Positions 2,967 through 7,883 of a DNA stretch of 33,830 nt are shown here, piece after piece. Numbering within the stretch: the stretch's first letter is position 1; the number at the start of each line of letters is the position of its first letter. A program made the translations under genes and the position numbers. Source of the DNA: a virus (lineage: Duplodnaviria; Heunggongvirae; Uroviricota; Caudoviricetes); the IMG/VR virus record IMGVR_UViG_2740892219_000011, one strand, 5' to 3'. The notes under the pieces are model-generated. The model did not search any database. It was not told the origin of the DNA and saw only the letters and a program-made list of their open reading frames with translations.

Positions 2967-3905
2967 ATGAATATTTCCGATATTCGCGCAGGACTGCGCA
3001 CGCTTGTAGAAAATGAAGAAACCACCTTTAAACAAATTGCTCTTGAGAGCGGACTTTCTACCGGAACTATCAGTAGTTTTATCAATGATAAGTACAACGG
3101 GGATAACGAGCGTGTTTCACAAATGCTGCAACGCTGGCTGGAAAAATATCATGCAGTTGCAGAACTACCTGAACCGCCCCGCTTTGTGGAAACGCAGACG
3201 GTAAAACAAATCTGGACAAGTATGCGTTTTGCCAGCCTGACTGAAAGTATTGCTGTTGTATGTGGCAATCCTGGTGTGGGCAAAACCGAAGCGGCCCGTG
3301 AATATCGCCGCACCAATAACAATGTCTGGATGATCACCATTACGCCATCCTGTGCCAGCGTTCTGGAATGTCTTACTGAACTGGCGTTTGAGCTGGGAAT
3401 GAATGACGCACCACGCCGTAAAGGGCCGCTCTCCCGCGCCCTGCGACGTCGCCTTGAAGGTACACAGGGGCTGGTTATCATCGACGAAGCTGATCATCTT
3501 GGTGCCGAAGTTCTGGAAGAACTCCGCCTGTTACAGGAATCAACCCGTATTGGCCTTGTGCTGATGGGAAATCACCGGGTTTATTCAAATATGACGGGGG
3601 GTAACAGAACGGTTGAATTTGCCCGTCTGTTTTCCCGTATTGCAAAGCGCACTGCAATTAATAAAACCAAAAAAGCCGATGTAAAAGCTATTGCGGATGC
3701 CTGGCAGATTAACGGCGAAAAAGAACTGGAGTTATTACAGCAGATTGCGCAGAAACCAGGTGCGCTTCGCATTCTGAATCATTCACTTCGCCTTGCCGCC
3801 ATGACGGCTCACGGTAAAGGTGAGCGTGTTAACGAAGATTATCTGCGTCAGGCTTTCCGTGAATTAGACCTGGACGTTGATATTTCAACGCTGCTGCGTA
3901 ATTAA
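2967..3905 (+). CDS. B: MuB ATP-dependent target DNA activator, 312 aa
   Basis: Walker A GNPGVGKT and Walker B LVIIDEADHL visible; size and position downstream of A match MuB. Confidence 0.9.
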   Translation: MNISDIRAGLRTLVENEETTFKQIALESGLSTGTISSFINDKYNGDNERVSQMLQRWLEKYHAVAELPEPPRFVETQTVKQIWTSMRFASLTESIAVVCGNPGVGKTEAAREYRRTNNNVWMITITPSCASVLECLTELAFELGMNDAPRRKGPLSRALRRRLEGTQGLVIIDEADHLGAEVLEELRLLQESTRIGLVLMGNHRVYSNMTGGNRTVEFARLFSRIAKRTAINKTKKADVKAIADAWQINGEKELELLQQIAQKPGALRILNHSLRLAAMTAHGKGERVNEDYLRQAFRELDLDVDISTLLRN

Positions 3906-3920
3906 GAAGGAGAAGAAATT

Positions 3921-4148
3921 ATGATGGCCCGAAATATAAAAATGGCAACGGATGCGCAGAACTGGTTACAGGCGCGCGGGAGTCATGTAAATGAATCATA
4001 TCTCGGCGTGGCGCGTCCGATTCTTGAAATCACTTACCCACCGGTGGAACTGGTAAAAAACGCGGTCAGAATTATGGAGCATAAGTCCGGGGTGGCCCGT
4101 TCTGTATGGACGGCCCGTCTTAATGGTTGCCAGATTATCTGGAGATAA
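3921..4148 (+). CDS. kil: Small early protein, Kil-like (host killing / cell-division inhibition), 75 aa
   Basis: First gene after B with RBS AAGGAGAAGAAATT; position and size match Mu kil as I recall. Function not verifiable from sequence alone. Confidence 0.6.
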
Positions 4149-4150
4149 CG

Positions 4151-4381
4151 ATGTGTATTAAAGCTGAAAAATATATTGAATGGGTTAAACACTGTCAGTG
4201 CCACGGGTTGCCGCTGACGACATATAAATGCCCCGGATGTGGTGAACAGATTATGACGCAATGCTCACCCGAAAAGGAAATTCGGGATTCCCTGACATGT
4301 TGTCCGTGGTGCAGCGCGGTTTTCTTTAAGCAGGTAAAAGGCGCGAAGGTAAAAGCCAGCGCAGTTATTCAGAATCAATAA
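4151..4381 (+). CDS. Cys-rich small early protein (putative zinc-binding), 76 aa
   Basis: ORF with RBS GGAGATAA 6 nt upstream of ATG 4151; multiple Cys pairs (CQCH, CPGCG, CCPWC). The upstream start at 4127 lacks an RBS. Confidence 0.6.
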   Translation: MCIKAEKYIEWVKHCQCHGLPLTTYKCPGCGEQIMTQCSPEKEIRDSLTCCPWCSAVFFKQVKGAKVKASAVIQNQ

Positions 4382-4392
4382 GGAGAAACAAA

Positions 4393-4662
4393 ATGGCAAA
4401 GGTTATCTTTGAGTTTACATGGCTGGAAAGTAGTGACGGTTGCAATGGGCGCAGAGAAGTTCTGGATGCAAAAGCATGTCTTGCAGATATCTCGCCAACG
4501 GAAAATACCGGGCCTCATGATTTACTGGCAAATATCGTCCTGACTATGGCTCCTGAAATTATTAAAAAGGCCAAAGATGAGATGCTGACCACTATGAAGA
4601 AAGTGGGTATGGAAGCTGAATGTGATTTAGTACCACATCCGGTGAATGCGGTTAAACATTAA
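4393..4662 (+). CDS. Hypothetical early protein, 89 aa
   Basis: ORF preceded by strong RBS AAGGAGAAA; tight spacing in the early operon. Confidence 0.65.
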   Translation: MAKVIFEFTWLESSDGCNGRREVLDAKACLADISPTENTGPHDLLANIVLTMAPEIIKKAKDEMLTTMKKVGMEAECDLVPHPVNAVKH

Positions 4663-4682
4663 TTCGCAAAGGAACGCTGACA

Positions 4683-5102
4683 ATGAACGTCAAAATCCGA
4701 AATGAAATTCAGGCATTAATCCGAATTCAGGAACGCAATAACAACGGTGGTGAATTACGCGAGTTTATTTGCGCCAGGAAAGTTGATGATTGTGGTGAAA
4801 AGACGTACCTGATTGCTTTCGACCATTACAGCATCTGTGCGCGTTATTGCGGCGAAAGCATATCCCGCGCCATTGCATTTGGAGGTGCGTTCAACGTGGA
4901 TTTATGGGAGTACGTCATGGACCGGGAATACATCTGCGCATCAGACCCTGAAGCCCGTGAAATGTGGCAGCGTATCTGGCGCGATTACCGGTTAATGGCA
5001 AAAGGCTGGGCGCGCTGCTGTTATTCCTCGCTTGCCCTGAAAGCGGTTCAGTTATCGCTGCGACATATTCCGGCACCACTGCGCGAGCCTCTGCTGTACT
5101 GA
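4683..5102 (+). CDS. Hypothetical early protein, 139 aa
   Basis: ORF with RBS AAAGGAACG; co-oriented in the early operon. Confidence 0.6.
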   Translation: MNVKIRNEIQALIRIQERNNNGGELREFICARKVDDCGEKTYLIAFDHYSICARYCGESISRAIAFGGAFNVDLWEYVMDREYICASDPEAREMWQRIWRDYRLMAKGWARCCYSSLALKAVQLSLRHIPAPLREPLLY

Positions 5103-5402
5103 ATGGTGGCTGACATGAAGTGTAATCGTAAGCGCTGGTCACGCGAAGACCGGGAATTTATCGAAGCCAACGTCGGGAAAATGACCGTTGAAGAAATGGC
5201 GGAAAAACTGAAAGTCGCCACAACCGCCCTCCGGGCACATGCCAGAAGGCACGGAATATCATTGTGTGTATACCGAATCAGTGAGCACGACAAATATTTG
5301 TGTCGTGAACTTTATAAAGAAGGGCTGGATATTCATGTCATTGCCCGAAAGATGGAATTAAGCAATCGGGCTGTATCCAGCATTGTATACAGCGGATATT
5401 AA
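5103..5402 (+). CDS. Hypothetical early protein, 99 aa, possible helix-turn-helix
   Basis: ATG overlaps the preceding stop (TGAATG). Segment MTVEEMAEKLKVATTALRAHARRHG looks HTH-like. An alternative start at 5115 is possible. Confidence 0.55.
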   Translation: MVADMKCNRKRWSREDREFIEANVGKMTVEEMAEKLKVATTALRAHARRHGISLCVYRISEHDKYLCRELYKEGLDIHVIARKMELSNRAVSSIVYSGY

Positions 5403-5421
5403 TTAACAGGAGCTTTAATTT

Positions 5422-5946
5422 ATGGCTAAACCAGCAAAACGTATCAAAAGTGCCGCAGCGGCTTATGTGCCACAAAACCGCGATGCGGTGATTACCGATA
5501 TTAAACGCATCGGGGATTTACAGCGCGAAGCATCACGTCTGGAAACGGAAATGAATGATGCCATCGCGGAAATTACGGAGAAATTTGCAGCCCGGATTGC
5601 ACCGATTAAAACCGATATTGAAACCCTTTCAAAAGGTGTTCAGGGATGGTGTGAAGCGAACCGCGACGAACTGACAAACGGCGGCAAAGTGAAGACGGCG
5701 AATCTTGTCACCGGTGATGTATCGTGGCGGGTCCGTCCACCCTCAGTAAGTATTCGTGGTATGGATGCAGTGATGGAAACGCTGGAGCGTCTTGGCCTGC
5801 AACGCTTTATTCGCACGAAGCAGGAAATCAACAAGGAAGCGATTTTACTGGAACCGAAAGCGGTCGCAAGTGTTGCCGGAATTACAGTTAAATCGGGAAT
5901 TGAAGATTTTTCCATTATTCCGTTTGAACAGGAAGCCGGTATTTAA
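5422..5946 (+). CDS. gam: Gam host-nuclease inhibitor (Ku-like DNA-end-binding protein), 174 aa
   Basis: Sequence MAKPAKRIKSAAAAYVPQNRDAVITDIKRIGDLQREASRLE... is recognisable as Mu Gam, near-identical as far as I can recall. Confidence 0.92.
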   Translation: MAKPAKRIKSAAAAYVPQNRDAVITDIKRIGDLQREASRLETEMNDAIAEITEKFAARIAPIKTDIETLSKGVQGWCEANRDELTNGGKVKTANLVTGDVSWRVRPPSVSIRGMDAVMETLERLGLQRFIRTKQEINKEAILLEPKAVASVAGITVKSGIEDFSIIPFEQEAGI

Positions 5947-7285: not shown

Positions 7286-7576
7286 ATGAATAATGAAACT
7301 AAATTTACGCCTAAAGACCTGGATGAAGAACTGGTGAAAGCTAAGATGCTTGAGCGTATGCGCGATGTTATTGAGACTGCAATCAGTAAAGGCTTTTCTG
7401 CGAGAGAGGCCCTTGAAATTATGACACGGGAAATTCATCTCATACGCGACGAAGTTTTGTTGCATAACAAAAAAGCCCACAACAATATTGTTTGTCGTGA
7501 GCTTGGCGTTGATGATTCAGCGGTTATTCCACAGCGTCAGTATCTGTGTGCTCTGATGAGAGGTTCCCGGCATTAA
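7286..7576 (+). CDS. Hypothetical early protein, about 96 aa
   Basis: ATG 7286 preceded by GAAGGTGA. Its 3' end overlaps the convergent minus-strand ORF by about 53 nt, so one of the two calls may be wrong. Confidence 0.45.
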   Translation: MNNETKFTPKDLDEELVKAKMLERMRDVIETAISKGFSAREALEIMTREIHLIRDEVLLHNKKAHNNIVCRELGVDDSAVIPQRQYLCALMRGSRH

Positions 7577-7883
7577 CAATATCCTGCCTTGAAGCCCAGA
7601 GCTTATTGAGCAGCAGATCAACATACTCATCGGCCTCAAAATCCAGTTCTTCGAACGTTTTTCGGTTCTTATAGCTGGCCTGTGTATTTCTGATGATGTC
7701 ATAAGCATCGTGCATGTTGATAACACCGTTTTCAATCAGCTTAATCATCAGATTACCGACCAGCATAAAACCGGTTATACCAAAGAATTTATCCTGGTTA
7801 TTAACAGGGGTGTCTTTCTGGTTTGTTTCGAAATCTGGGTTTTGTTCATCATCCGACACCGTATGTTGTTCTTGTTCAGCCAT
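7524..7883 (-). CDS. Reverse-oriented, highly acidic hypothetical protein, 119 aa
   Basis: Minus-strand ORF with RBS AAGGAAAT 5-7 nt upstream of its ATG. Hand count gives about 24 Asp/Glu versus about 9 Lys/Arg; composition is protein-like. It is the only clearly protein-like frame across 7577-7952 and sits in an AT-richer stretch. Confidence 0.55.
   Translation of the reverse strand: MAEQEQHTVSDDEQNPDFETNQKDTPVNNQDKFFGITGFMLVGNLMIKLIENGVINMHDAYDIIRNTQASYKNRKTFEELDFEADEYVDLLLNKLWASRQDIVNAGNLSSEHTDTDAVE

Follow-up and report, generated by a model that had tools for sequence, protein, structure and literature searches.

Layout and identity of the kil–gp9 block

Five co-oriented open reading frames (ORFs) on the plus strand fill positions 3921–5402 of the window (the whole 33,830-nucleotide stretch of viral DNA that was analysed), as given by the ORF list. 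The block is flanked on the left by the gene for the MuB transposition ATPase (2967–3905, plus strand, 312 aa; Pfam Phage-MuB_C, E 4.9e-34, together with AAA_22; 100% identity to Mu B) and on the right by gam (5422–5946, plus strand, 174 aa; Pfam Phage_Mu_Gam, E 4.6e-42; 99.4% identity to Mu Gam), both of which lie outside it. From left to right the five genes are kil, the ortholog of Mup05 (3921–4148, 75 aa); gp6, the counterpart of Mup06, formerly E5 (4151–4381, 76 aa; a TTG-extended version starts at 4127); gp7, in the slot of Mup07/E6/gnarl2 (4393–4662, 89 aa); gp8, the counterpart of Mup08, formerly E7 (4683–5102, 139 aa); and gp9, the counterpart of Mup09, formerly E8 (5103–5402, 99 aa as in the Mu RefSeq record). 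The genes are tightly packed, with 1449 of the 1482 nucleotides of the block coding and intergenic gaps of 0–20 nt.

When positions 3800–5500 were compared with phage records by megablast, Escherichia virus Mu_3F6 (LR595867.1) matched at 100% identity, two Mu-like phages of Yersinia at 96.9% and D108 at 93%. Identity to Mu was 97.8%, over only 84% of the query and in two pieces. The gene order B, kil, gp6, gp7, gp8, gp9, gam is common to the annotated LR595867, Mu and D108 records, and the Mu and D108 blocks (NC_000929, Mup05–Mup09; NC_013594, gp05–gp09) share the spacing and flanks of the window as well. The window differs from both in pairing a Mu-like gp6 with a third gp7 sub-lineage. At the protein level, identity to Mu is 99% for Kil, 99% for gp6, 25% (global) for gp7, 95% for gp8 and 99% for gp9; the corresponding values against D108 are 100%, 92%, 40%, 99% and 100%. 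With a probability of about 0.9, the window is to be identified as Escherichia virus Mu_3F6, a Muvirus whose c and ner genes are of the D108 type, and the block comprises kil, gp6, gp7, gp8 and gp9 of its semi-essential (SE) early region. The block is already known: its members are catalogued Mu/D108 early genes and its sequence is in GenBank. The first-pass annotation had recognized a semi-essential region of a Mu-type phage with host-directed functions, and this agrees with the position of the block at the start of the SE region and with the literature on kil, SE deletion and Gnarl2. Its description of the block as an uncharacterised reservoir overstates the novelty, given the identity to a deposited phage and the earlier screening of Mu gp6 to gp8.

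Selection was estimated from 46 related IMG/VR loci together with Mu and D108. The dN/dS ratios (kil 0.09, gp6 0.27, gp7 0.29, gp8 0.17, gp9 0.28) indicate purifying selection on all five, which argues that they are real genes rather than chance ORFs; with the coordinates, they bear out the initial description of five co-oriented small ORFs (75–139 aa) between B and gam. Clear Shine-Dalgarno (SD) sequences precede four of the five (kil AAGGAG, gp6 GGAG, gp7 AAGGAG, gp8 AAGGAA). The proposal of a ribosome-binding site on each ORF thus holds for these four and fails at ATG 5103, the first start considered for gp9. None of the five proteins has a hydrophobic stretch resembling a transmembrane segment, and the prediction for each is a small, soluble protein of the cytoplasm. 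Between 3500 and 6200, promoter-like and terminator-like sites show no excess above chance and neither strand matches an Rfam family. Both results fit expression from the long early transcript that has been described for the early genes of Mu (PMC3325207). The kil to gp9 genes are most likely the first five SE cistrons and would follow A and B immediately on the long early (Pe) transcript. They would be translated as closely packed cistrons from their own SD sequences, with gp9 relying on a weak SD or on translational coupling to gp8.

Kil, gp6, gp8 and gp9

kil is the first gene after B, starting 15 nt past the B stop codon. Its ATG-ATG start and its AAGGAG SD, 8 nt upstream, are kept in related loci. 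The product is basic (pI 10.2) and matches phrog_2743 over its full length (E 2.8e-43). The first ORF had been called Kil-like; judged by its near identity to the Mu protein and its complete identity to that of D108, it is Kil itself, the ortholog of the genetically defined Mu kil product, a classical host-killing gene. Cells that express Mu kil become spherical and die (Waggoner 1989, cited in PMC3961180). The name and the host-killing phenotype are common to lambda Kil and Rac KilR, which are inhibitors of FtsZ or division. Mu Kil, however, has no sequence similarity to either, and its expression gives spherical cells, not filaments (PMC3961180). The PHROG label of the family, 'Kil protein for bacterial septation inhibition', is therefore regarded as a name transfer. 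A PDB sequence search with Kil returned nothing significant. Within the literature library searched, nothing on Mu Kil postdates 1989, and the kil to gp9 genes are outside the subject of a 2026 paper on the Mu beta-clamp.

The gp6 protein matches phrog_3786 (E 5.5e-40). The early remark that ORF 4151–4381 is Cys-rich is confirmed: nine of its 76 residues are Cys, and five of these (C27, C30, C50, C51 and C54) are invariant among four divergent alleles with identities down to about 76%. The invariant residues form two CxxC-type knuckles, C27-x2-C30 and C50/C51-x2-C54. No named zinc-ribbon family of Pfam or NCBIfam is matched above its curated cut-off, the matches below it being Zn_ribbon_ACC (15 bits against 24.5), TIGR02605 (18.6 against 31.3) and NF047912 (16.8 against 37). 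The Mu protein was annotated as 'Zn finger' by Silas et al. (PMC12373910). From the Cys pattern alone, we infer that gp6 is a zinc-binding protein of the zinc-ribbon type. The slot itself is variable: among 48 loci it holds the zinc-ribbon gene or an unrelated 70-aa gene (phrog_3375), or it is empty.

For gp8 the AlphaFold2 model failed (pLDDT 48, pTM 0.33); it was built on a shallow alignment of 11 sequences that are at least 71% identical. The protein matches phrog_3690 (E 1.2e-96) and has no Pfam, NCBIfam, PADLOC or PDB match. An exhaustive HMMER search of 1.84 billion representative proteins yielded only 10 matches. P0115, considered as a distant relative, was rejected as a frameshifted copy. 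By these searches gp8 is a lineage-restricted orphan.

Two starts have to be weighed for gp9. ATG 5103 directly adjoins the stop codon of gp8 (TGAATG) and lacks an SD, whereas ATG 5115 is kept in nearly all related loci. The codon equivalent to 5103 is ATG in most of these loci, GTG in many and a non-start in a few; in the last group this codon falls within an AAGGAG-like SD of the later ATG. LR595867 annotates gp9 from 5115 (95 aa), as against 99 aa in the Mu RefSeq record. The lack of an SD at 5103 and the conservation of ATG 5115 suggest that gp9 probably starts at 5115 and has 95 aa.

gp9 is small and basic, with two HTH-like segments. The HTH-like segment first proposed for 5103–5402 gains support from a match to phrog_323 (E 6.9e-29, residues 5–98 on profile positions 142–244 of 319), the name of which, 'transcriptional regulator, D5-like', is an annotation. 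Support from curated families falls short, as no Pfam or NCBIfam HTH family is matched above its cut-off: HTH_Tnp_1 reached 19.8 bits against 24.1 and RWP-RK 19.7 against 29.3, with Sigma70_r4_2 and GerE lower. The sole PDB match of the gp9 profile, a weak one, is to the tandem-HTH protein 2lvs_A (E 0.0036). gp9 is plausibly a small tandem-HTH regulator that binds DNA. The LR595867 label of gp9, 'COG1209: dTDP-glucose pyrophosphorylase', is unsupported by Pfam or NCBIfam.

A replacement cassette at the gp7 slot

The gp7 gene encodes an acidic protein, VUD37869.1 (pI 5.2), behind an AAGGAG SD. In 30-nt sliding comparisons, nucleotide identity of the window to Mu and D108 is about 97–100% up to about position 4400, falls to 20–60% as far as the gp7 stop codon at 4662, and returns to 87–100% from 4664. 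The interval of reduced identity, 4400–4663 (no strand assigned), has its 5' boundary just past the codons of the shared N-terminus, and its 3' boundary at the gp7 stop. gp7 is a discrete, gene-sized cassette that has been replaced by recombination. This replaced cassette, sequence-unrelated to Mu Gnarl2, is the most informative feature of the block and was absent from the first-pass annotation.

Two classes of gp7 occupy the slot in the 48 loci: F2, of 89 aa, the type of D108 and the window (phrog_2230), and F3, of 87 aa, the type of Mu (phrog_10252). Mu gp7 and D108 gp7 are 20% identical. Searches with both classes returned 91 cluster representatives, all from Enterobacteriaceae. Every combination of the states of the gp6 slot with both gp7 classes was seen in the 48 loci, which indicates independent assortment of the two slots. 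Within F2, identity between members falls as low as 35%, and there are many sub-alleles. The window protein matches phrog_2230 over residues 1–89 of 89 (E 6.1e-36) and aligns with D108 gp7 in BLASTP without gaps over 89 aa (E 2e-24, 40% identity); it also carries the motifs MAKVIFEF, SP..GPHD and M..EII that are invariant in the D108 class. By sequence it is a D108-class allele of a distinct sub-lineage. The other members of this sub-lineage (P0001–P0005 and P0049) are 65–94% identical to window gp7, whereas identity to every other F2 member is about 40%. The sub-lineage occurs in E. coli, Yersinia and Cronobacter. Of 5426 complete genomes of E. coli, 90 contain gp8–gp9, and the gp7 alleles of these include the window type in 19, the Mu type in 20 and the D108 type in 13. 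gp7 also has the highest amino-acid divergence of the five genes (mean pN 0.22 in the 46 IMG/VR loci with Mu and D108).

An AlphaFold2 model of window gp7 (pLDDT 77.6, pTM 0.64) has a long beta-hairpin (residues 3–31), a kinked helix (41–70) and a short strand (77–81). Sequence variability is concentrated in residues 9–33, where it is 1.74 bits, as against 0.03 bits in residues 1–8, and the differences between window gp7 and other F2 members likewise cluster in this part of the hairpin. A PDB sequence search returned nothing significant, and a fold search with the model found no informative structural relative. In BFVD the model retrieved only an 82-aa protein (TM 0.68/0.73, 19% identity) and no recognisable Mu gp7. 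The hypervariable beta-hairpin (9–33) may be a specificity surface, with the conserved SP..GPHD..MAPEII helix region serving as a scaffold.

Gnarl2 and the role of the early block

Mu gp7 (E6/Mup07, NP_050611.1) is the product of gnarl2 (orf63, UDP0063; Silas et al., bioRxiv 10.1101/2023.04.06.535777; Nat Commun 2025, PMC12373910). Gnarl2 alone shifts the O-antigen bands of ECOR1 and ECOR22 downward and raises T5 infection of wild E. coli 10^5–10^6-fold, and gnarl2 is among the conditionally lethal accessory genes (Silas et al., PMC12373910). The library used in that work included Mu gp7, with gp7 alleles of the D108 and window types absent (PMC12373910). Within the literature library searched, gnarl2 had no follow-up.

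The similarity between Gnarl2 and window gp7 has two sides. Both lie between gp6 and gp8, are of nearly the same length (87 and 89 aa), are acidic and soluble, and share the first eight residues and a terminal His. The remaining approximately 80 residues have no detectable homology, and the two proteins belong to different PHROG families, phrog_10252 and phrog_2230 respectively. In BLASTP, window gp7 and Mu gp7 gave no alignment at E <= 100. Profile comparison gave weak signals: full-length hhalign of the window gp7 class against the Mu class reached a probability of 36–40% (E 3e-4), and Mu gp7 matches phrog_2230 at E 0.009. After removal of the first eight residues, hhalign scored 11.1, where shuffling of the columns gave a null of 10.2 +/- 2.1 and 61 of 200 shuffles reached the observed score. 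The weak signals thus came entirely from the shared N-terminal octapeptide, and homology between F2 and F3 was rejected as unsupported, since the signal is gone once the octapeptide is trimmed and the octapeptide lies in the conserved recombination flank. By sequence, window gp7 is the positional counterpart of Gnarl2 and not a member of its family.

It has to be asked whether window gp7 is, nonetheless, a true and very divergent homolog of Gnarl2 and its functional equivalent, an O-antigen/LPS modifier with allelic classes that track host O-antigen or biosynthetic-enzyme types. The common slot, size, charge, solubility and terminal residues and the full-length profile scores are in keeping with such a relationship, and the presence of several gp7 alleles at similar frequencies is expected for a target-matching polymorphism. 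Against it stand the BLASTP result, the fall of the trimmed profile score to the shuffle null, the location of the octapeptide in a recombination flank and the failure of the viral fold search to return a recognisable Mu gp7. Moreover, classical lysogenic seroconversion is not expected from a gene in a lytic early operon. On this balance, equivalence to Gnarl2 is possible and rather doubtful. Since no homology to Gnarl2 is detectable past residue 8, an envelope target for window gp7 is a guess, and an envelope-directed role by analogy is put forward tentatively. In such a role, gp7, a small acidic protein, would bind a host factor that varies, most plausibly one in envelope or surface-polysaccharide synthesis, on the positional analogy with Gnarl2.

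For the block as a whole, the inferred roles of window Kil, gp6, gp8 and gp9 derive from orthology and that of gp7 from position only. Deletion of the SE region raises host viability after MuBam infection from about 20% to 100% (PMC3325207); in this literature, loss of the entire SE region takes away the toxicity of non-replicating Mu. The 200-gene accessory-gene screen of Silas et al. included Mu gp6 (UDP0137), gp7 and gp8 (UDP0119) (PMC12373910), and of these three the texts (bioRxiv and PMC12373910) report gp7 alone as a hit. Mu gp6 and gp8 were part of the screen, and neither text names them among its hits; a role of theirs in host takeover is experimentally unsupported.

gp6, gp8 and gp9 may instead serve the phage's own programme, by tuning early transcription or assisting replicative transposition, like 'arm'-type functions. 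The resemblance of gp9 to a small DNA-binding regulator is in line with this, as are the positions of gp8 and gp9, the most invariant of the genes, beside gam in 46 of 46 loci; stimulation of Mu replication by non-essential early functions is also on record (Goosen et al. 1982, cited second-hand). Nothing, however, maps such a function to these three genes, and gp6 is dispensable in many natural relatives; this explanation is rather unlikely. According to the first-pass annotation, at least one of gp6, gp7, gp8 and gp9 would be a new inhibitor of intracellular anti-phage defence or a host shut-off factor, which we consider improbable. In its favour, the genes are accessory, non-essential and early, the gp6 and gp7 slots show the mosaicism and independent assortment that are common at arms-race loci, gp7 is the most divergent, and Mup06–08 were chosen by Silas et al. 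as good accessory-gene candidates. Against it, neither Mu gp6 nor Mu gp8 (99% and 95% identical to those of the window) is reported as a counter-defence or trigger hit from the screen in wild E. coli hosts; gp8 and gp9 show strong conservation and no diversification; every gene of the block has a dN/dS under 1; and there is no PADLOC or named-family match. Comparison with known anti-defence families, proposed at the outset, gave nothing: the PADLOC models had no match for kil, gp6, gp7 or gp8, and for gp9 only noise at E about 0.01.

Returning to the allelic cassette at the gp7 slot, a broader proposal is that unrelated small effectors are kept there as a balanced polymorphism, each fitted to its own variant of a host envelope or surface-polysaccharide pathway. 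The window allele would then be 'Gnarl-like', with a new fold and target, and would join Kil, as a blocker of cell elongation, in a module of the lytic programme that targets the envelope early on. We regard this proposal as quite unlikely.

The residual value of the locus is narrow but concrete: an uncharacterised gp7 allele at a known accessory hot spot. The gnarl2 slot of Mu is polymorphic: E. coli prophages carry, at similar frequencies, at least two classes that are unrelated in sequence, with many sub-alleles, and tests have so far covered a single allele. Should other gp7 alleles also act on surface polysaccharides, they would provide a natural series for finding the target of Gnarl2, and would reveal how O-antigen is remodelled by small phage proteins without recourse to enzymes. 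Should their action lie elsewhere, the slot would be a compact source of new host-directed effectors.

Database labels of gp9 and Kil

Two products of the block between MuB and gam carry labels that deserve comment. In LR595867.1, gp9 (5603-5890; window 5115-5402) is labelled "COG1209: dTDP-glucose pyrophosphorylase". This function is unsupported, as the protein has 95 aa and its matches are HTH-like only; the label looks like a propagated mis-annotation. Mu Kil (window 3921-4148) is labelled "Kil protein for bacterial septation inhibition" by both PHROGs and RefSeq. The label is at odds with the literature, where Mu kil is associated with spherical cells and is without similarity to the Kil proteins of lambda or Rac (PMC3961180).

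Structural and sequence neighbours of gp7 and gp8

The model of gp7 has a single structural neighbour with a meaningful score, the viral protein A0A6G5Y6I4 (BFVD, 82 aa; probability 1.00, TM 0.68/0.73, 19% identity). This protein might be a member of the Mu-type (F3) class of gp7 or an otherwise related cassette protein. The protein P0115, considered as a distant relative of gp8 (43-44% identity), was rejected: it is a frameshifted copy, with identical blocks interrupted by sequence that is unrelated. A gp7-like segment is also contained in P0007, a Salmonella protein that is partial and bears the name "glutamine amidotransferase"; its contig has 255 nt, and the entry is probably an artefact of annotation.

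Variation at the gp6 slot

Polymorphism in the related phages is also present at the gp6 slot itself, which is occupied by the zinc-ribbon gene or by an unrelated gene of 70 aa (phrog_3375, labelled function unknown), or is empty. Each of these states combines freely with either class of gp7 in the related loci. Loci representing the polymorphism are L012 (986-1198), L020 (2485-2697) and L030 (2499-2711), together with L031-L033 and L036-L046, where the gap from kil to gp7 is 314-326 nt. The window's gp6 contains a hairpin resembling a terminator, with a T-run after it (CCGTGGTGCAGCGCGG TTTTCTTTAA; 4304-4327, + strand); the number of terminator-like sites in the region is no higher than expected from shuffled sequence.

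Mosaicism beyond the block

A second mosaic hot spot of the semi-essential region is found at window 7286-7883. Here gp14 (7286-7576, + strand) is 33% identical to Mu gp14, and gp15 (7524-7883, - strand) encodes 119 aa vs. 88 aa in Mu, with an identity of 12%, which indicates that the two gp15 proteins are unrelated. For the neighbouring gp11, gp12, gp13, gemA and mor, identity is 95-99%. Mu gp13-15 were among the accessory-gene candidates picked by Silas et al. (PMC12373910).

On the other side of the block, some relatives (L004, L009, L031-L036, L038, L040 and L047) combine a near-identical segment from kil to gam with a MuB that is only 40-44% identical to that of the window. The recombination mosaic thus reaches into the transposition genes.
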